Shown: positions 22,361 through 33,100, counted from the stretch's first letter. The stretch is DNA of 64,000 bases from Syntrophales bacterium (GCA_040767195.1 JAXGPA010000001.1:800001-864000), one strand, 5' to 3'. Numbers and translations: made by a program. The notes: a model not told the origin generated them from the letters alone.

Positions 22361-22437
<77 letters not shown>

Positions 22438-22445
22438 AGAAAAGC

Positions 22446-22485
22446 AAGGGGTTACGAAAAATATGACGTAACCCCTTTTTATTTT
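22446..22485 (+). terminator. Rho-independent terminator of tRNA-Arg
   Basis: AAGGGGTTACG-loop-CGTAACCCCTT followed by a T-rich tract. Confidence 0.8.
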
Positions 22486-22754
22486 ATGCTGCCCCATAGC
22501 TACCCTTATAGAATGAATTGTGTTAAACAAAAAAGCAGACTTGACCTTCTCGTCTGCACCTGCAAACAGGCAGGTCGTGTAAGCTTACCAAATCATTGAA
22601 TACCGTTTCAAGTCTAACGCGAGTTTCTTTATTCCATGACAAGCAAGAATTCCTTGACAAGTAAGTGCCATAACTTTAAATACATATGACGATTCATTTG
22701 TCTTGCCTGTGTCATGCAATTCTTTGAGCGGCTTTAATGAAGGGGGGCATCGTC

Positions 22755-23061
22755 ATGAAGGCGCTCATGCTTTTATTCCTTACTCATGATCTTTTTTATT
22801 TTTTCGCCGGTTGCTGAGGCCACGGCGTTGGTCTTGCCACAAGGGCAGCCATGGTCAGAAGGGAAGGATCCTTTTATAATGGCATGTTCGGGGGATTCAA
22901 ACTCTTACAATAGTGATCTTTTGGCTGCACAGTACGACGACTATGCAATGCACGGTCTTATCGAATTTGATATTTCTTCTTTCCCTGCCGGCACACCTGT
23001 TCATAGCGCAACCTTGGAATTGAAGGAGTATTATCTTTATAATTCCAAAGTTTTTCTTTAA
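22755..23061 (+). pseudogene. Frameshifted, truncated secreted protein with DNRLRE-like motif
   Basis: ATG 22755 (AGGGGG SD) is one base out of frame with ORF 22786; removing one base gives the signal peptide MKALMLLFLLMIFFIFSPVAEA. GLIEFDISSFPAGTPVHSATLEL resembles DNRLRE-domain proteins; the frame stops right after. Confidence 0.55.
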
Positions 23062-23112
23062 TATGCGACAGGATCAGGAAAGGAAACGAAACATGAAAAA
23101 GGAGAAATCAGT

Positions 23113-23781
23113 ATGAAAAAGAGAAGATACGCCCTGTTTTCTGCCTTGACCCTTTTGATGTTTCTTGTGACGCCTCTAATGGTAAACGGTGCCCAAACGC
23201 CAGGACCTATTTACGGGCCCTTTTATCTTCCTGATTTCGGAACAAACCCAGGATCTGAGCACTATTACCAGATCGTTACAACAGACTATCAGGAATTAAC
23301 TTGGTCACAGGCTGTCGAAGCGGCGGAAAACATACCGCCCTACAAGCCTCACCCCCTGGGACCGACATATTATCCACATCTGGTGACGATTACATCGGAG
23401 GATGAGTGGGATATTATCAAGGATGTCATTTTGAAGGAGGGTGACAATTGGTATTGGCTGGGAGCGACGGATAAAGAAGACGAAGGCACGTGGACTTGGG
23501 TCACCGGTGAGGAATTCAGTATTCAAAAATGGTATGCTCCTGATGAACCGAACGGGGGTACCAGTGAAAATTATCTGGAAGGAAGCTATTCGGGATGGAA
23601 TGATATCGACGACACTGGCAGGGCTTGGGGATATATTGTTGAATATGAGCGTAATGAAAACTCCGCACCGGCCGCCATCCCCACGCTTTCCGGGTGGGGA
23701 ATGATCATTATGTCAATACTGTTGGTGTTGACGGTGATAATATTCATGCATCGAGGGCGTATGGTAAGTCGAAGTAAATGA
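23113..23781 (+). CDS. Secreted C-type lectin domain protein with IPTL-CTERM sorting signal
   Basis: Signal peptide; HYY..LTWSQA..HLVTITSEDE..WLGATD..EGTWTWVTGE..EPN..EN..WND; C-terminal IPTLSGWGMIIMSILL TM helix and basic tail. Confidence 0.88.
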   Translation: MKKRRYALFSALTLLMFLVTPLMVNGAQTPGPIYGPFYLPDFGTNPGSEHYYQIVTTDYQELTWSQAVEAAENIPPYKPHPLGPTYYPHLVTITSEDEWDIIKDVILKEGDNWYWLGATDKEDEGTWTWVTGEEFSIQKWYAPDEPNGGTSENYLEGSYSGWNDIDDTGRAWGYIVEYERNENSAPAAIPTLSGWGMIIMSILLVLTVIIFMHRGRMVSRSK

Positions 23782-24060
23782 CAGGTAAATACCTTGTTGG
23801 TCCCACGCGATGTTAGAATAGGTTGCAGCAAACCTATTCAACATAGGAAGAGAACAACATGGTATTTACACGTCTATTTTCAATAGTCTTGACTTTTTTC
23901 AGAAATCGATAAGATTCAATACAGATGCCTCAAGTCTCCGTCCACGGTTACCCGGACGCATTTCCGTTCTTCCGCAAAATCGAAGCCGGTCCAGATTCCG
24001 AACGCCTTCAGGAGGATTTCCTCGGGATGAAAATTCTTCCGGGTATGACCTCATTATGCC

Positions 24061-24313
24061 TTACAAGACACGCTTCACCCCGGGAATTCCCCGGATCAGA
24101 TGAGCGGAAAGAAAGCAGGCTGGAATGCCTGACACGAGTACCAAAACCAGTCTTGCCAGCGGGAAAAGCGCCGCATGCTCGGAAAGGATCGTAAACCCGA
24201 CCACAATCAGCGGGTGGAAGATGTAGTCCGCCAAAAGCGATGGCCGAATGGTGGACGATGACCAGCGTTATGAGAAAAACCCGAAGCCGGTCGATGTAAT
24301 AGGCGCGTTTCAT
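24061..24313 (-). pseudogene. Internally deleted acyltransferase family 3 (OpgC/MdoC-like) relic
   Basis: N-terminus MKRAYYIDRLRVFLITLVIVHHSAIAFGG joined out of frame at about 24226 to a C-terminus YIFHPLIVVG...IPACFLSAHLIRGIPGVKRVL-stop. Confidence 0.75.
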
Positions 24314-24518
24314 AAAATGATGAAAAAAATGGGACTGAGCTGGCAAAACATTATTTGAGAAGTTTATTTTCAGAGTGGCAAATTACGTAAAACAATAGTA
24401 TTTGTCAAAGGATTACGGGCGCTGCATTCAAGTTCAAGTGTACCTGCCGCGGCATATGGCAAATTTCCGGTTCAGAGAAGACAGAATGTGAGTTTATATT
24501 TATCAATAAGGAGGTTCC

Positions 24519-26030
24519 ATGATGAAGAGGCGTGACTTTATTAAAACCGCTCTTGTTTCCTCCGCCGGTATCGGCGTCATGTTGAAAGGAATCCCCTCCT
24601 GCGCGCGGGGCATACCCGCCTCGGCTTTTACAGGAAGGGCCGGGGTCCGTTGCTATGCCGGAGCGCCTGGCGGGGTAATCCTGACATCGCTGAGCGATTT
24701 TTTCAAGATCGGCCCGGGACCCTCCAGTTCCCACACCATCGCTCCCCTCAGAATCGCCGCCCACTTCAGAGAAACCATGGAGAAGCTTCCCCGGGAGAGC
24801 ACATCCCGGGCGAAACAGATCAGAGCGCGGCTTTACGGCAGCCTGAGCAGTACCGGCAAGGGTCACAGAACCGACCGAGCCATCATCGCCGGCCTCCTCG
24901 GCCAGAGGCCGGAGACCTGCGACACCGGGCTGATGGAGGCGCTCGCCGATGAAACGAAAACATACATCACCACAATCGGCGATGTTGATTTTACGGTCGG
25001 ACACAGCACGATCGTTTGGGACAAGGTGGAACACACCTTTCCCTTTGTCAACACGCTGGTCATGGAGCTCATCGACGAGACGGACGTGGAGGTTTTCTCG
25101 CGGGAATATTACTCCACGGGGGGCGGATTCTTTCAGTGGAAAGGTCAGAAACCAGAGGTCCGGGGCGAACCGCTTTTTCCGTACGGCAGCATGACGGCTT
25201 TCCGCCGCCTGGCGGCGGCCCAGGGCAAAGGGCTCCACGAGATCATCCTGGAAAACGACATGGCCGTTATGGGTGTGGATGAAGGAAAAATACGGGAACA
25301 CCTGGACCTTGTCCTGGAAACCATGGACAAAGGGGTACAGCAGGGTCTTCGTGAGGAAGGGCTGCTGCCGGGGCCCTTCGAATTTCACCGCAAGGCCAAG
25401 CGCATCCACGAGCAGGCGCTGAAAAAGAAAGGCGGCGACAATTTCATGGGAATGCTGAGCAGTTACGCCCTCGCCGTTTCCGAGGGTAACGCCGCCGGCC
25501 GGCTGGCCGTGACGGCGCCCACCCTGGGCTCGGCCGGCACCATACCGGCTGTGGCGTATGTGATGAAACACCACCTGAAGTGTTCCCAGGAAACCATGCG
25601 CAAAGGCCTGCTGGCGGCGGCACTGGTCGGGTTCCTCTGTAAAAACAATGCCAGCGTGGCCGGCGCCGAGGTGGGATGCCAGGGCGAGATCGGTGTCGCC
25701 TCCTCCATGGCCGCCGCCATGATCACTTACGCCCGCACCGCTTCCCTGGAAGCCACCGAGGTGGCCGCGACCATCGCCCTGGAGCATCACCTGGGCATGT
25801 CCTGCGATCCCGTGGGAGGCTTTGTTCTGATTCCCTGTATCGAACGGAACGCTTTCGGGGCCGTCAAGGCCTACAATGCCTATCTCATGGCCACGAGCGA
25901 GATCACTTCTCAGCACTGGGAAGACCTGGACCGGGTCATCGCGGCGATGCTGGAGACAGGGAAAGCCCTGCCGCAGGCTTACCGGGAAATGGGAACCGGC
26001 GGCCTGGGCGTGACGATGGTGGACTGCTAG
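24519..26030 (+). CDS. sdaA: Fe-S-dependent L-serine ammonia-lyase (single chain) with N-terminal twin-arginine signal peptide
   Basis: FKIGPGPSSSHT, YGSLSSTGKGHRTD, YYSTGGGF, GAEVGCQGEIG, EHHLGMSCDPVGG, IPCIERNA; N-terminal KRRDFIK; AAGGAGGT SD. Confidence 0.93.
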   Translation: MMKRRDFIKTALVSSAGIGVMLKGIPSCARGIPASAFTGRAGVRCYAGAPGGVILTSLSDFFKIGPGPSSSHTIAPLRIAAHFRETMEKLPRESTSRAKQIRARLYGSLSSTGKGHRTDRAIIAGLLGQRPETCDTGLMEALADETKTYITTIGDVDFTVGHSTIVWDKVEHTFPFVNTLVMELIDETDVEVFSREYYSTGGGFFQWKGQKPEVRGEPLFPYGSMTAFRRLAAAQGKGLHEIILENDMAVMGVDEGKIREHLDLVLETMDKGVQQGLREEGLLPGPFEFHRKAKRIHEQALKKKGGDNFMGMLSSYALAVSEGNAAGRLAVTAPTLGSAGTIPAVAYVMKHHLKCSQETMRKGLLAAALVGFLCKNNASVAGAEVGCQGEIGVASSMAAAMITYARTASLEATEVAATIALEHHLGMSCDPVGGFVLIPCIERNAFGAVKAYNAYLMATSEITSQHWEDLDRVIAAMLETGKALPQAYREMGTGGLGVTMVDC

Positions 26031-26086
26031 AAAGGGGGCACGTTCTTCGTCCCCTCAGAATCGTTTTTCGAGAAGGTAGTCTTTTT

Positions 26087-26889: not shown

Positions 26890-28356
26890 TCAATGGCCTT
26901 CTTCCGGCCCGCTGTCTCTATTTTCCCGGTATGCCTGTCCGGATGGCGTTGCTGATGGCTCCAGTGCTTCCACTTCCCAGCCGCCGCCCATGGATTTGTA
27001 GAGATTGACCATGGCGCGGAAAAGGGTTCCCTTGGTCTGGACGTACGTGAGTTCCATGTTGAAGAGGTTCCTGTCCGCGTCGAGAACTTCCAGATAACTG
27101 CTGTAGCCGTTTTCGTAACGGAGCCTGGCCAGGTCCCTGTATGATCGCAGGGCTTCGACTTGAGCCGCCTGGGCCTCCATGATCTCCCGGGTCTTTCGCT
27201 GGTCGACCAGGTTGTCTTCGACTTCCCGAAAGGCCTCCTGCACGGACTGCCGGTATCGGATCAGGGCCTGTTCCTGAATGGCCTCCGTCGCCTTTTCCTG
27301 GCCGTAGAGACGGCCGGCCATGAAAATCGGCATCGTGATCGTTCCGCCGAAATTCCATGCCTGGGCAGGCCCGGTGAAGAGATTGGAAAGGTCGGTGCTG
27401 ATGGAGCCGAACATGCCGGTCAGGGAGATGGACGGAAAATAGGCGGCCCGGGCGACGCCGATACGGGCGTTCGCGGCGATCAGGTCCTGTTCGGCCTGCC
27501 TGATGTCGGGGCGGCGCTCCAGGACGTCCGAGGGCAGACCTGCCGGCACTTCCGGCACGACGAGCTCGTTGATGGACCTGCCCCTCTTCACCGGTCCCGG
27601 ATTGCGGCCCAGCAGGAAGTTCAGGGCGTTTTCCCCCTGGTAGATTGTTTTTTCGATCTTCGGTATGGCCGCCCTGGCGCTTTCATACTCCGATTTCACC
27701 TGGCTCAGTTCGAGTTCCGAAACCACGCCCCCGGCAAACCGCATGTTGAAAAGATCCAGCGATTCCTTGCGCGTTTCCACGGTCCTCCGGGCGATTTCCA
27801 ACTGCCGGTCCAGATCCCTCAGATCGATATAGCTGCCCGCCACGGTGGCCGCCAGGGAAAGAAGAACGGCACGGCGGGACTCTTCCTTTGCAAGGAGGTC
27901 CGCCCGGGCCGCTTCCGTGGCCCGCCTCAGTTTCCCCCAGAGGTCGATCTCCCAGCTCGCGTTCAGGTCGGCCTGGTAGGTGCTGTACTCCGGTGACAGC
28001 CCCGGCTGCCATCCCGTGATTCCTTCCTGTGTCGCCCGCTGTCTCGCCGCGGCGGCCCCCGCGCCGGCCTGGGGAAAAAGATTTCCCCGGGTGGCCATGT
28101 ATCTTCCCCGGTATTCCTCTATCCGGGCGGCGGCGATGAGTAAATCCTTGTTGTCCTTCAAGGCGGTTTCGATCATTTCGTTCAGCACGGGATCGCCGAA
28201 CTGCTCCCACCAGCGGGCGTTTACGGATGCCCCGGCGTCCTTCTCCTCGAAACGCCAGGCCTGGGGTGTGTCCACGTCAGGCCGGCTGTAATCGGGCCCG
28301 ACGGCGCACGCAGTAAGGATGAGGGCGGCCAGAGCGGCAGCAAGCGGCCTTTTCAT
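26890..28356 (-). CDS. RND efflux outer membrane lipoprotein (OprM/NodT family)
   Basis: Lipobox LTAC-AVGPDY, WEIDLWGKLRR, LERRPDIRQAE, LYKSMGGGW. Confidence 0.95.
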   Translation of the reverse strand: MKRPLAAALAALILTACAVGPDYSRPDVDTPQAWRFEEKDAGASVNARWWEQFGDPVLNEMIETALKDNKDLLIAAARIEEYRGRYMATRGNLFPQAGAGAAAARQRATQEGITGWQPGLSPEYSTYQADLNASWEIDLWGKLRRATEAARADLLAKEESRRAVLLSLAATVAGSYIDLRDLDRQLEIARRTVETRKESLDLFNMRFAGGVVSELELSQVKSEYESARAAIPKIEKTIYQGENALNFLLGRNPGPVKRGRSINELVVPEVPAGLPSDVLERRPDIRQAEQDLIAANARIGVARAAYFPSISLTGMFGSISTDLSNLFTGPAQAWNFGGTITMPIFMAGRLYGQEKATEAIQEQALIRYRQSVQEAFREVEDNLVDQRKTREIMEAQAAQVEALRSYRDLARLRYENGYSSYLEVLDADRNLFNMELTYVQTKGTLFRAMVNLYKSMGGGWEVEALEPSATPSGQAYRENRDSGPEEGH

Positions 28357-28357
28357 A

Positions 28358-31300
28358 TCAGGCACCCTCCTTTTCCGGTGGCTGTTCGACAGCGCCCGGC
28401 TCGACTGTCCGGGCCCGGGCGTTCTCCCGACCCTTCGATCCCGGAGCGCGGACTTTCGTGCTTTCCAGGAGATAGAAAAAGAGGGGGATGAAGAAAATGG
28501 CGATGAGGGTGGCGCCGAGCATGCCCCCGATCACCCCCGTGCCGATGGAATGGCGGCTGTTGGCCGAGGCGCCCGTCGCGAGGGCGAGAGGCACGCAGCC
28601 GAGAATGAAGGCAAGGGACGTCATCACGATGGGGCGCAGCCTCATGCGGGCGGCGGAGACGGCGGCGTCGTAAACAGAGGCGCCCTCCTGGAGCTTCAGG
28701 ACGGCGAACTCGAAGATGAGGATGGCATTTTTCGCGGCCAGTGCAATGAGTGTGATCAACCCGATCTGGAAATAAACGTCGTTCTCGATACCCCTGAGCG
28801 CGATGGACAGGAGGGCCCCGAAAAGGGCGAAGGGAACGGCCAGAACGACACCGAACGGCAGCGACCACTTCTCGTACTGGGCGGCCAAAATGAGAAAAAC
28901 CATGACGAGCCCGAAGATAAAAACGACAACCGACGTTCCACCAGCCTTTTTTTCCTCGTAAGATTGGCCGCTCCAGGCGTAGGAAAAATCCGCCGGCAGA
29001 ACCTGGACGGCCACCCGTTCCATGGCCTCTATGGCCTGGCCGGTGCTGTAGCCGGAAGCGGCACCCCCGATAATCTTGGCGGCGGGAAAGTTGTTGAACC
29101 GGGTGATCAGGTCCGGTCCCGCGACGTAGCGCCTCGTGATGACCGACTTGAGAGGAACCATGTTGTTGTTTTTCGAACGCACGTAGGCCTTTTCTATGTC
29201 TTCCGGTTTGGAGCGGTATTGGGGCTCCGCCTGCAGAATGACCTGCCACAGGCGGCTGAACTTGCTGAACTGGCTGACATACATGGACCCGAACAGGATC
29301 TGGAGGGTGTTGTAGACATCCTCCACGGGGACGCCCAGCATCTCCGATTTTTCCACGTCCACATCGACCATCAGCTGTTGCGAGTGCGCGTTCATGAGGG
29401 TATTGACCCCCTGCAGCTCAGGCTGACGTTTCGCCACGGCGATAAAGGACCGGGTCACCTCTTCAAGCTTGTCCGTTCCCCCGGAGCCGGTGTTCTGAAT
29501 CCAGAATTCGAAACCCGCCGTCGTTCCGAGTCCCGGGATGGAGGGCGGGTTCACCGGCAGGACAATGCCTTCACGGTGCTTCATGAGCTGCATGCCCGTC
29601 GCCCTCACGACTGCTGGAGCCTGCAGCGCCTTTTCCGATCGTTCCTCATAATCCTTCAGGGAAATGAACAGGGTGCCCGCATTGGTCTTCAACTGCCCGT
29701 CCATGAGGCTGTAGCCGTCCACCTCGACGACGTCCTGAACGGCAGGGTGCCCGGAGAATATCATGCCCGCGGCCCGATCCAGTTTCTGGGCCCGGTCAAG
29801 ACTGGCGGCGTCGGGGAGAAAGCTCACCCCCAGGAGGTACCCCTGGTCCTCCGAGGGAACGAAGCTTGTCGGTATCCTGTGAAAGAGGGCGACTGTCGCG
29901 GCAATCATGACGACGACGAAGAGAAGGGACACGAAAGCCCGCCTGATGACGAGCCGGACCACCCGGATGTAGCCTTCCACAAGGCGGTTGAACCCCTTTT
30001 CGAACCAGACAAAGAACCTGTTCTTTTTGTCATCCCCGTGCGTGAGAAGGATGGCGGCCATCGCCGGGGACAGGGTCAGGGCGACGATCCCGGAAAGAAC
30101 GACGGAGATGGCGATGGTTACGGCGAACTGCTTGTAGAGCTGTCCCGTCATCCCCCCCAGAAACGCGACGGGGACGAAAACGGCGCAAAGGACCAGGACA
30201 ATGGCGACAACGGGACCGGTCACCTCCCCCATGGCTTTTTTCGCCGCGTCTTTCGGGGTGAGATTGAACTCGGTCATGTTACGCTCGACGTTCTCAATAA
30301 CGACGATGGCGTCGTCGACCACGATGCCGATGGCGAGAACCATGCCGAAGAGGGTCAGCATGTTGATGGAAAAGCCGAAGAGGGTCATGCCGATGAAGGT
30401 CCCGATGATGGATACGGGAATCGCCATGATGGGAACGACCGTCGCCCGGACGCTCTGAAGAAACAGGTAGACCACGAGCACGACCAGGAGGCACGCCTCG
30501 AAGAAAGTGATGAGGACTTCCTCGATCGACGCCCGGACGAACTTGGTCGTGTCCATGGCGATCTTGTACTCGATGCCGTCGGGGAAATCCTTGCTCATCT
30601 CCTCCAGGGTCCGGGTCACCTGGCTGGACACGTCGAGGGCGTTGGCGCCCGGCTGCTGGTAGACGGCGATGGGGGTGGCCGTTTTACCGTTGAGCCGTGT
30701 GCGGATCGAGTAATCCCGCAAGGCCAGTTCGGCCCGCCCGATGTCTTTCAGGCGGACGATGGCAGCGCCTTCCCGGTCCGTTCGCAGGATAATGTTTTCG
30801 AATTCTTCGGGCTCCACGAACCGGCCCCTGGTCGTGACGGAAAACGTCTGTTCCACCGGGCCATCGGTGGGGGACTGTCCGATCTTGCCGACGGCGTACT
30901 GCTGGTTCTGCCTCTTCACGGCATTGGCCACGTCGGTGGCGTTGATCCCGAGCTGGGCCATGCGGTCCGGCTTCAGCCAGATGCGCATGGCATAGTCGGG
31001 CAGTCCCAGGATGGCCGTCTGGCTGGCGCCCGGTATGCGCTTCAAGGCATCCAGAACGTGGAGATTGGCGTAGTTGGCCACGTAGGTTTCGTCATAGCGG
31101 TCGTTGGGGGAGTAAATGCCGATAACCATGAGGAAAGTGCTTGATTTCTTGCTGACCTGAACTCCCAGGTCCGTGACCGATGAGGGCAGCAGCGGCAAGG
31201 CCTGGTTCACCCGGTTCTGAACGTCCACCTGGGCCAGATCGGGGTCGGTCCCGATGTTGAAGAAAACGGTGAGGGTCATGTTGCCGGTGCTGGCGCTCGT

Positions 31301-31543
31301 CGAGGACATGTAGATCATGTTGTCCGCGCCATTCACCTGCTGCTCTATGGGTGCGGCCACGTTGTCGGAGATCACGTCGGCGCTCGCCCCCGGGTAACTG
31401 GCCGAAACGGTGACCTGGGGTGGCGTTATGTCCGGATACTGGGCGATAGGAAGGTTGTACATGGCCACAAGGCCCGCGATGACGATAATGATGGAAATGA
31501 CGGAAGCGAAGATGGGGCGGTCGATGAAGAAATGGGAGAACAT
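28358..31543 (-). CDS. RND efflux permease (HAE1, AcrB/MexB family)
   Basis: FIDRPIFASV, GIVVDDAIVVIENVER, LAAKNAILI, RLRPIVMTSLAF. Confidence 0.97.
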   Translation of the reverse strand: MFSHFFIDRPIFASVISIIIVIAGLVAMYNLPIAQYPDITPPQVTVSASYPGASADVISDNVAAPIEQQVNGADNMIYMSSTSASTGNMTLTVFFNIGTDPDLAQVDVQNRVNQALPLLPSSVTDLGVQVSKKSSTFLMVIGIYSPNDRYDETYVANYANLHVLDALKRIPGASQTAILGLPDYAMRIWLKPDRMAQLGINATDVANAVKRQNQQYAVGKIGQSPTDGPVEQTFSVTTRGRFVEPEEFENIILRTDREGAAIVRLKDIGRAELALRDYSIRTRLNGKTATPIAVYQQPGANALDVSSQVTRTLEEMSKDFPDGIEYKIAMDTTKFVRASIEEVLITFFEACLLVVLVVYLFLQSVRATVVPIMAIPVSIIGTFIGMTLFGFSINMLTLFGMVLAIGIVVDDAIVVIENVERNMTEFNLTPKDAAKKAMGEVTGPVVAIVLVLCAVFVPVAFLGGMTGQLYKQFAVTIAISVVLSGIVALTLSPAMAAILLTHGDDKKNRFFVWFEKGFNRLVEGYIRVVRLVIRRAFVSLLFVVVMIAATVALFHRIPTSFVPSEDQGYLLGVSFLPDAASLDRAQKLDRAAGMIFSGHPAVQDVVEVDGYSLMDGQLKTNAGTLFISLKDYEERSEKALQAPAVVRATGMQLMKHREGIVLPVNPPSIPGLGTTAGFEFWIQNTGSGGTDKLEEVTRSFIAVAKRQPELQGVNTLMNAHSQQLMVDVDVEKSEMLGVPVEDVYNTLQILFGSMYVSQFSKFSRLWQVILQAEPQYRSKPEDIEKAYVRSKNNNMVPLKSVITRRYVAGPDLITRFNNFPAAKIIGGAASGYSTGQAIEAMERVAVQVLPADFSYAWSGQSYEEKKAGGTSVVVFIFGLVMVFLILAAQYEKWSLPFGVVLAVPFALFGALLSIALRGIENDVYFQIGLITLIALAAKNAILIFEFAVLKLQEGASVYDAAVSAARMRLRPIVMTSLAFILGCVPLALATGASANSRHSIGTGVIGGMLGATLIAIFFIPLFFYLLESTKVRAPGSKGRENARARTVEPGAVEQPPEKEGA

Positions 31544-31557
31544 GGGGGGTCCTCCCT

Positions 31558-32808
31558 TTACCGGCCCGGGCTGGTGCCGGCGGCGGCCGGCGGGGCTTTA
31601 CCGTTCTGTCCGGAGGGCGTTCCCGTCGTTCCGGCTTTCGCTGACGGCTCGGCGATTCTGACAGGAACACCGGGCGCGAGGCGGATCAGGTTGTCGATGA
31701 TGACCTTATCACCGGCCTTGAGGCCTTCGGAGATGAATACACTGTCGCCGTGCCACTCTCCGATGACGACACCGCGAAACTCCACCTTGCCTTCCTCGTC
31801 GACAACCCAGGTAAAATGCCCCTTGGCTCCCTGCATGACGGCGCTGCGCGGCACCAGGACGGCATCGGGACGGATGGCGCCCTTCAGAAACACCCGGGCG
31901 AACTCCCCCGGTCGAAGGAAACCGGGAACCGTCAGCGGGTTGTCGATCTCCGCCCTCACTTCAAAGGTCCCGGTCTTCTGGCTGTAAGAAGGGTCGGCAA
32001 AATTCAGGCGCCCGCGGTTCGGAAAGATCGTCCCGTCGGCCAGCATGAGCTCGACCTCGTAATTTCCCTTCGGGGGCTCCCTGAACGTCCCTTTCGCGAC
32101 GGCCTCCCGGAGCCTGAGATTTTCGTTCTCGGAAACGCTGAAGGTGATCCAGATGGGATCGAGTTTCGCCACATAGCTCAGGAGGCTGTCGCTTCCCACG
32201 GAAATATAACTGCCTTCCTGCCTTTGAGCCCTGCCGGCGTACCCGTCTATGGGCGATTTGATGGTCGTATAACCGAGATTCAGCTCGGCATCTCGGACTT
32301 TCCCCCGGGCGGACAGGACGGCGGCGCGGCTGGTTCGTTCCTGTCCCACGGCATCGTCGAGATCTTTCTGGCTCACGGCATTTTTTTCCGCCAGGGGACG
32401 GATCCTGTTCAGGTTCGCCACAGCCGTCTCCAGTTTCGCTTCCTGTTGAGCCAGTTCGCCGAGGGCCTGCTGCAGGGCCGCCTCGAAAGGACGGCGGTCG
32501 ATTTGAAACATGACCTGCCCGGCCTTTACCCTGCCTCCTTCCTCATAGCTTATCTTTTCCAGAAACCCGGCCACCCGGGAGCGGATCTCGACCTCGTGGG
32601 AGCTCTCCGTGGTCCCGACGAATTCAATGGAAACGGGAACGTCCCTCGTTGCGATTTCGAGGACGGTCACATCGACCGGTCCCGCCGGTGGTGCCGCTTT
32701 TTGCTCACCACCGCACGCGACAAGGAAAGCCATCATGGGGACGGCCAGAAAAAGGGCGAGGAGCGTGCGGATAGAAATCCTGGATATAAGGGGTTCGAAA
32801 AACTGCAT
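31558..32808 (-). CDS. RND efflux periplasmic adaptor (MFP)
   Basis: Lipobox LVAC, VEIRSRVAGFL, LGYTTIKSPIDG, LRPGEFARV; start probably ATG 32808 (GGAGGT SD). Confidence 0.95.
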   Translation of the reverse strand: MQFFEPLISRISIRTLLALFLAVPMMAFLVACGGEQKAAPPAGPVDVTVLEIATRDVPVSIEFVGTTESSHEVEIRSRVAGFLEKISYEEGGRVKAGQVMFQIDRRPFEAALQQALGELAQQEAKLETAVANLNRIRPLAEKNAVSQKDLDDAVGQERTSRAAVLSARGKVRDAELNLGYTTIKSPIDGYAGRAQRQEGSYISVGSDSLLSYVAKLDPIWITFSVSENENLRLREAVAKGTFREPPKGNYEVELMLADGTIFPNRGRLNFADPSYSQKTGTFEVRAEIDNPLTVPGFLRPGEFARVFLKGAIRPDAVLVPRSAVMQGAKGHFTWVVDEEGKVEFRGVVIGEWHGDSVFISEGLKAGDKVIIDNLIRLAPGVPVRIAEPSAKAGTTGTPSGQNGKAPPAAAGTSPGR

Positions 32809-33100
32809 CCCACCGACCTCCGAACAAAAATGATCAGGTTTTTCATGTCCGGAATACAACCGGATCACATGGCTCCCCGCTTGAGAATAAAGAAACCTTG
32901 AAAGCGATTGCGTTGCGATTTATCTACATCACTTGAAGGAGCCTGTCAATGAACATCAGGGCCGGGAAAGCCGCTCTCCAGAAGAGCCGGTTCACCGCCG
33001 CGGCGATCCGGCGTCCCCTCGGAAGACCGAATCGTCGATGACCGCGCCCTTGATCTTTCAAAAACGGCGTGTTAGGAATTGAGAAAAAAAAGGAGGGTTT

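Follow-up and report, generated by a model that had tools for sequence, protein, structure and literature searches.

A predicted twin-arginine signal peptide on a single-chain iron-sulfur L-serine dehydratase from a Syntrophales bacterium and its relatives

Known serine dehydratases and the enzyme of this locus

Single-chain Fe-S L-serine dehydratases have been described from Legionella (LSD, PDB 4RQO), Escherichia coli (SdaA, SdaB and TdcG) and Campylobacter jejuni (SdaA). To our knowledge, all characterised enzymes of this kind are cytoplasmic, a location that for C. jejuni is also implied by the need for SdaC. Fe-S cargo of the twin-arginine translocation (Tat) pathway has so far consisted mostly of electron-transfer machinery. 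PMC12647591 gives His61 of Legionella LSD as the proposed catalytic base and Cys458 as the fourth iron ligand in a 'tail in mouth' arrangement; it also gives a Cys-x-Glu pair, Cys23/Glu25, as essential in the related CyuA of Methanococcus maripaludis (PDB 9FYI). Deamination outside the cytoplasm has two precedents. According to PMC3417520, AnsB of C. jejuni 81-176 is a normally cytoplasmic amino-acid deaminating enzyme that has gained a signal peptide, acts in the periplasm and uses a substrate that cannot be imported; the same paper describes the sdaA gene of C. jejuni as working together with the importer SdaC. The L-amino acid deaminase (LAAD) of Proteus is Tat-routed and, according to PMC5651824, converts amino acids to keto acids and ammonia by FAD-dependent oxidative chemistry while held by an uncleaved anchor. 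No exported Fe-S serine dehydratase appears in the titles and abstract openings of the literature searched on the family or its export, and supplementary genome-wide Tat predictions could list some. In the papers found to name both sdaA and a Tat substrate the two terms are unrelated, and the word 'periplasm' is absent from a 2026 review of L-serine (PMC13168631). The family itself is known; a Tat signal on its known members is not reported in the literature searched and is to that extent new.

The window analysed here is a stretch of 64,000 nucleotides from a Syntrophales bacterium (GCA_040767195.1, JAXGPA010000001.1:800001-864000), and all positions are counted from its first letter. Positions 24519-26030 on the plus strand form a single open reading frame of 503 amino acids without an internal stop, closed by the stop codon at 26028-26030. 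The strong Shine-Dalgarno sequence that an earlier, sequence-only reading had placed before this frame is AAGGAGGT at 24508-24515 (+), 3 nt 5' of the first ATG and 6 nt 5' of the ATG at 24522. Met stands two residues before the arginine pair in 96% of 113 homolog rows, and all 12 homolog loci inspected have a comparable GGAG/GAGG site ahead of their M-x-RR start. Because homologs begin M-x-R-R, the second ATG is the likelier start, and translation probably begins at 24522 to give a protein of 502 aa. Residues of the protein (P0001) are numbered here from the first ATG, that is, in the 503-aa reading.

The chain opens with a 55-residue N-terminal extension, made up of a Tat-type signal of about 28 residues and a conserved linker of about 26, and continues into a single-chain [4Fe-4S] L-serine dehydratase core (24684-26030, +) that profiles and Foldseek both recognise. 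Pfam finds SDH_beta (residues 57-208) and then SDH_alpha (residues 236-496) in the one chain. Sequence alignment and Pfam place the beginning of the core at residue 56-57, which bears out the earlier claim of an in-frame extension of some 55 aa ahead of an intact SdaA. The protein scores 383.1 bits against TIGR00720, the equivalog profile of the single-chain Fe-S L-serine dehydratase, and so passes the cut-off of 345.1. Legionella LSD is the best solved relative by sequence (4RQO; E 8.7e-84 over residues 56-503), and Foldseek against the same entry gives E 1.9e-27, TM 0.77/0.86 and 38% identity. The AlphaFold model has a mean pLDDT of 81.8, with low quality in the cluster loop and in the C-terminal tail.

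In the alignment to Legionella LSD, along which matching residues were counted by hand (for His116, chain position minus 18), His116 (24864-24866, +) pairs with His61, C387, C429 and C440 (25677-25838, +) pair with the cluster-ligating cysteines of 4RQO, and Cys503 (26025-26027, +) pairs with Cys458. The sequence-only reading had found the first three cysteine motifs and missed C503, the fourth ligand. All five residues are invariant in an alignment of 41 homologs (A1), as are T335 and the GPSSSHT motif at G67-T73; together with S69-S71 of that motif they are common to the canonical enzymes. Of the defining sequence tests applied for the single-chain Fe-S serine dehydratase family, the protein passes all but those at four non-canonical positions, and databases label the proteins of its clade as plain L-serine ammonia-lyase. 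Domain order, fold, catalytic His, three cluster Cys and C-terminal Cys are the same as in the Legionella, E. coli and C. jejuni enzymes. To these P0001 adds the Tat-type signal, the conserved 26-residue linker and a set of clade-specific substitutions, and, unlike sdaA of C. jejuni, its gene has no linked serine transporter. The alpha domain of CyuA and the chemistry of its cluster are related to those of P0001 (Foldseek E about 1e-6, 11% identity); P0001 lacks the Cys23/Glu25 pair and has GPSSSH/His116 instead.

The twin-arginine leader and its conservation

The predicted Tat signal peptide covers residues 2-29 (24522-24605, +), a span marked by its conservation, its h-region and a helix at residues 4-21 of the model. 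It is composed of an n-region KRRDFIK, an uncharged h-region T10-L22, a c-region with K23, and a putative signal peptidase I cleavage site, S-C-A / R-G-I-P. The motif RRDFIK lies at 24528-24545 (+), and R4 and R5 are invariant in A1. A close match to the Tat consensus had been claimed; in K-R-R-D-F-I-K (residues 3-9) the RR, F and K agree with it, and the residue before the pair is K rather than S/T. Homologs have D (72%) or N (16%) at that place. Their consensus over 113 rows is D/N-R-R-x-F-L/I-K, with F in 96% and K in 95% (RRxFxK), and the part after it, though it varies, remains hydrophobic (mean KD 1.21). The h-region counts 13 uncharged residues in P0001 and fewer than 13 in 22 of the 113 homologs, and a basic residue occurs in the c-region of 60. 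Ala occupies -1 in 101 of these rows, a small residue stands at -1/-3 in 109, and R-G-I-P is sharply conserved 24-27 residues past RR in 107. A lipoprotein reading was rejected, no lipobox being found in any of the 113 rows. The linker that follows (residues 30-55, RGIP...CY.GPP; 24606-24683, +) is defined by conservation as the N-terminus of the predicted mature protein; its C45 is kept in 95 of 113 homologs, and the AlphaFold model covers it with low to medium confidence (pLDDT about 54-68).

The RRxF extension is conserved. Among the 120 best homologs (identity 62-96%, almost all of 499-503 aa), RR followed by a hydrophobic stretch is present in 113. The seven others are predicted proteins whose start falls within the leader or downstream of it, four of them still showing the cleavage region. 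This search used the full protein and is biased toward leader-bearing proteins, a bias that two checks limit. A search with the catalytic part alone returned a single full-length clade representative, the RR-bearing P0038, before identity dropped to 50%, the other clade rows being fragments. Read directly from DNA, the leader is present in 11 of 11 clade loci and also in L088, L089 and L131. Canonical-type SdaA loci with a visible N-terminus (among L017-L085) have no such leader when inspected by eye. In one clade member, from a Selenomonadales MAG (L013:6001-6250), the RR leader is intact and the linker behind it is frameshifted, which is either an assembly error or the mark of a pseudogene.

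Codon comparison in 13 genes has shown that the RR codons vary synonymously and that differences in the n-region are concentrated at the third position (0.37/0.15/0.71). A start downstream of the RR motif, which the sequence-only reading had itself named as the counter-case, is not indicated: none of the 13 genes has an in-frame start with a Shine-Dalgarno sequence between RR and core. These patterns indicate that the leader is translated and under selection. Contigs from four RNA libraries of one anaerobic-digester study also cover the gene with its leader; this coverage was not counted as evidence because neighbouring genes are covered to a similar extent and carried-over DNA may contribute.

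Profiles respond less strongly. Pfam TAT_signal (PF10518) matches residues 1-18 with 14.1 bits against a cut-off of 22.7 (E 0.048), and TIGR01409 lists no match for P0001 and is above its cut-off for one of eight homologs tested. Profile support for the single leader is weak, and the case therefore rests on conservation. A self-coded TatFind-like rule, distinct from the published program as well as from SignalP and TatP, passes 25 of 1714 ORF starts of the host genome (1.5%), 65 of 120 clade homologs in its strict form and 91 of 120 in a looser form, which is more than chance would give. Of 149 family representatives it passes two, each of which has an RR leader.

Leaders of this kind also exist outside the clade, a point that the sequence-only reading had overlooked together with the clade substitutions at otherwise fixed positions. 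Three of 149 further family representatives (P0124, P0132 and P0134) have RR-like leaders. Searches from two of these returned a group of 542-aa proteins, with labels including Chthoniobacterales, in which 116 of 120 rows passed the leader test; among 119 new rows, 15 with leaders belong to a Desulfovibrio group and a group of 503-515 aa. There are at least three other Tat-bearing SdaA lineages, with RR leaders that look unrelated and have hydrophobic cores. In trees of the catalytic part, each of the four Tat groups is set apart by a single branch (supports 100, 100, 100 and 92) within a subfamily that is rich in anaerobes and has leaderless proteins interspersed, and the maximum-likelihood trees need a minimum of four changes. 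An AU test (36 rows, LG+G4, 2000 replicates) did not reject one Tat clade (p 0.11), and in its unconstrained tree two of the Tat lineages came together. Because the test did not reject a single clade, repeated gain of the leader is put forward only as possible.

Proposed export and competing readings

The host genome (G000; 2.39 Mb, 98.8% complete) has a tatC adjoining a tatB-like gene, a separate tatA, and other proteins with RR leaders, so that the tatABC set looked for at the outset is present. The second, cytoplasmic SdaA that had also been looked for is absent: G000 has neither a second SdaA nor a second SDH_beta gene. Its sole other SDH_alpha protein is a homolog of the CyuA-type L-cysteine desulfidase (L003:1477-2814, minus strand, on contig C7), labelled so on the Cys-x-Glu motif that it carries; no RR leader is seen on it, and BLAST gives no meaningful match to P0001. 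Seven of 13 other distinct carriers searched likewise have no second SDH_beta gene, and these cells and G000 would therefore have no cytoplasmic SdaA, a point against the export reading; the other six keep one or more further SdaA-type genes. Transporters of the SdaC/HAAAP, SDF/SstT and AGCS families were not found in G000 in a search confined to those families, which is in keeping with export. A CstA-type importer was considered as a partner and set aside, since it is not enriched in carriers (11 of 14, against 47 of 61 relatives).

We favour Tat export followed by periplasmic deamination of serine, and give this reading a probability of about 0.55. Export of some kind is highly probable; the Tat export inferred by the sequence-only reading is well supported by conservation of the leader and by tatA, tatB-like and tatC genes. 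Under this proposal the protein would be translated from the ATG at 24522, fold and take up its cluster in the cytoplasm, with C503 possibly capping the cluster. TatBC would then recognise RRxFxK, and the precursor would cross the inner membrane folded. Cleavage after S-C-A would release a soluble periplasmic enzyme beginning with RGIP. Periplasmic L-serine would lose water at the cluster, and the resulting enamine would hydrolyse to pyruvate and ammonia. The pyruvate could then be taken up by the cell, while imported or home-made serine in the cytoplasm would be spared. In this way the cell might use external serine with no importer, shield its PLP enzymes from the enamine and release ammonia outside. 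Serine is the likeliest substrate. Desulfidation of cysteine, which the earlier reading had allowed beside it, appears less likely because the catalytic His of SdaA is kept, the Cys-x-Glu pair is absent and a CyuA-type gene exists separately in the genome.

Both precedents differ from the enzyme proposed here. LAAD (PMC5651824) is likewise a Tat-signal cofactor enzyme that makes keto acids and ammonia outside the cytoplasm, but it is an FAD oxidase of unrelated fold with an uncleaved anchor, whereas P0001 would be an Fe-S lyase of redox-neutral chemistry, and cleavage of its leader is predicted. AnsB differs in having a Sec signal and no cofactor, and it belongs to a different family. If the proposal is true, Tat export extends to catabolic lyases with a solvent-exposed, labile [4Fe-4S] cluster, and periplasmic breakdown of serine changes metabolic models of syntrophs and sulfate reducers. 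Serine would be used with no importer needed, ammonia would arise outside, and the reactive enamine would stay away from cytoplasmic PLP enzymes. The enzyme would also offer a simple test of whether a C-terminal cysteine caps the cluster during transport.

The alternative that survives best accepts export and cleavage and gives the enzyme another substrate, so that the same cluster chemistry would perform beta-elimination on a different periplasmic amino acid such as L-threonine, L-cysteine or an S- or O-substituted serine or cysteine. The evidence for it comes from a residue comparison of 23 clade rows with leaderless relatives, 45 near and 56 far, and with the three other Tat groups. Residue 323, which adjoins the invariant E322 and N324, is Gly in the clade and Glu (the second Glu of EEN) in 93-100% elsewhere. 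Residue 437, three before C440, is Leu in the clade and Gln (of QIPC) in 88-100% elsewhere (98% of outgroups). M491, which lies with G492 in the C-terminal tail, is found in 70% of the clade, at a position that is Thr (of KET) in 98-100% elsewhere. L336 adjoins T335 and stands where 93% of far relatives have the Asn of PTNG and nearer ones have Cys, Ala or Gly; this Asn is thus replaced in nearby non-Tat relatives as well. Further clade differences at positions fixed elsewhere are R117 (adjoining H116), T418, E468 and A483. The position of LpLSD His124 is Phe or Tyr in the clade, and likewise in near leaderless relatives. The substitutions sit beside catalytic motifs in sequence, while the known catalytic residues are all kept. 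They are absent from the other Tat-bearing lineages and are therefore not simply an adaptation to export. They may be compensatory, alter activation or shift specificity. The changes at G323, L336, L437, M491/G492 and R117, the long stem branch leading to the clade (0.46-0.49 changes per column in the trees) and the further SdaA-type genes kept by six of the 13 other carriers are all in keeping with a shifted substrate. Against it, every identified catalytic and cluster residue is retained, the TIGR00720 equivalog cut-off is passed, the CyuA pair is absent and G000 has its separate CyuA-type gene. A shifted substrate is held to be unlikely.

Residence in the cytoplasm is more doubtful. The protein would then be an ordinary serine dehydratase, and its RR leader either a remnant or a maturation tag that holds it for cluster loading or fixes it on the cytoplasmic side of the membrane; RR leaders of this remnant or maturation type occur on some cytoplasm-facing molybdoenzymes. 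P0001 is the only SdaA of G000, and its h-region is short and weakly hydrophobic, both of which speak for such a role. G001, a carrier genome of the same genus with a listed completeness of 100%, contains the gene and keeps tatA but lacks tatBC in its assembly. It also lacks close orthologs of the genes that flank tatBC, PBP1A and an HDAC-family gene (best 42-43% identity), which suggests that the missing block is an assembly gap. Elsewhere tatC is found in 12 of 14 clade-carrier records, the two misses both being G001, and it is found in 58 of 61 relatives, so that its co-occurrence with the gene is weak evidence either way. More telling against a cytoplasmic protein is that cleavage site and hydrophobic core are kept across proteins only 62-70% identical, features that a remnant would be expected to lose, and that RR leaders of unrelated appearance, also with hydrophobic cores, occur in three further lineages. 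The reading is improbable.

There is a slim chance that the protein is routed through Tat and not cleaved, its leader anchoring the enzyme to the inner membrane on the periplasmic side. The Proteus deaminase offers a precedent (PMC5651824), and the -3/-1 site is here S-C-A rather than A-x-A. The prevalence of Ala at -1 and of a small residue at -3 (101 and 109 of 113), the jump in conservation directly afterwards and the lack of a lipobox argue for cleavage. That the extension is untranslated or the motif due to chance, for which the sub-threshold Tat profile scores could be cited, is largely refuted by the placement of the Shine-Dalgarno sequence, codon-level conservation, the lack of internal starts with such a site and the leader in 113 of 120 homologs.

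Distribution and gene surroundings

The clade is rare and patchily distributed, being present in four of 61 near relatives, G000 included, and in two of 400 genomes sampled from the phylum (E up to 1e-170). The closest named relative is from a Syntrophaceae MAG (83% identity). Named carriers include Syntrophales, Syntrophorhabdales, Desulfovibrionales, Desulfobacterales, Competibacteraceae, Lamprocystis, Roseiarcus, Negativicutes and Nitrospirota; they are diderm lineages (the Negativicutes within Bacillota), except for one MAG labelled 'Clostridia'. Solidesulfovibrio magneticus is a carrier in culture. This distribution suggests lateral spread of the clade among anaerobes and microaerophiles. 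Among plasmids no clade member was found, all 244 records being below 60% identity.

Within the window the gene is solitary, lying between a low-GC stretch that follows tRNA-Arg(TCT) (22361-22437) and a convergent DUF374 gene. The sequence-only reading had noted that it borders the tRNA-Arg islet, which is correct as to position; membership of the islet is rejected on GC (0.608 for the gene, 0.448 for the islet and 0.598 for the genome), and the link is positional only. In G001 the gene is on a different contig from tpiA/gap and the DUF374 gene. A conserved operon was also rejected: in an all-against-all comparison of ORFs from 16 loci, 11 of them from the clade, neighbours were shared only between close relatives among the matches listed, and 15 further loci have varied neighbours. 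AspT/YidE fails as a general partner, since it occurs in four of 14 carriers and is on another contig in G000.

Some loci place the gene beside other enzymes of amino-acid breakdown. A C69 dipeptidase with a signal peptide lies directly downstream on the same strand in L006 and L132, and one lies directly upstream of an SdaA of a different Tat lineage in L160 and L161. It was rejected as a partner because it was seen in three of 15 carriers, was not found in G000 and also lies near a non-Tat SdaA (L150). In L140:5001-7657 (+), an MFS transporter, a Tat-bearing SdaA of another lineage and a signal-peptide asparaginase stand in a row. Directly after the clade member in L133 is a PLP-dependent decarboxylase (PF00282; 6625-8025, +) with an RREF twin-arginine leader, a second candidate Tat-exported amino-acid enzyme by its sequence. 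A phosphatidylserine decarboxylase with a signal peptide is found further on in that locus. Such occasional neighbours are suggestive. A tentative and rather unlikely extension is that the clade has a retuned active site and a substrate other than serine, within an undescribed periplasmic layer of exported dipeptidase, asparaginase, decarboxylase and dehydratase that would yield keto acids and ammonia outside the cytoplasm, with export perhaps gained repeatedly.

Minor features of the window concern the flanks of the gene. A hairpin lies directly 3' of the stop (26031-26056; -12.3 kcal/mol for 42 nt folded) and is followed by a short T run; it is a possible terminator, and a terminator and promoter scan did not call it. 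That scan found two promoter-like sites against 1.4 expected, which is uninformative. The low-GC stretch (22438-24518; GC 0.448) resembles a degenerate insertion at the tRNA. It contains a short ORF at about 22756-23061 without a Pfam match and, at 23113-23781 (+), a gene for a C-type lectin / IPTL-CTERM exported protein. At 24008-24290 (-) is a broken frame that begins MKRAYYIDRLR and is interrupted by stops; Pfam found nothing in it, and we take it to resemble an acyltransferase-3 / OpgC-type gene. On the other side, at 26890-32868 (-), the translations point to an RND efflux system with periplasmic adaptor, transporter and outer-membrane factor.
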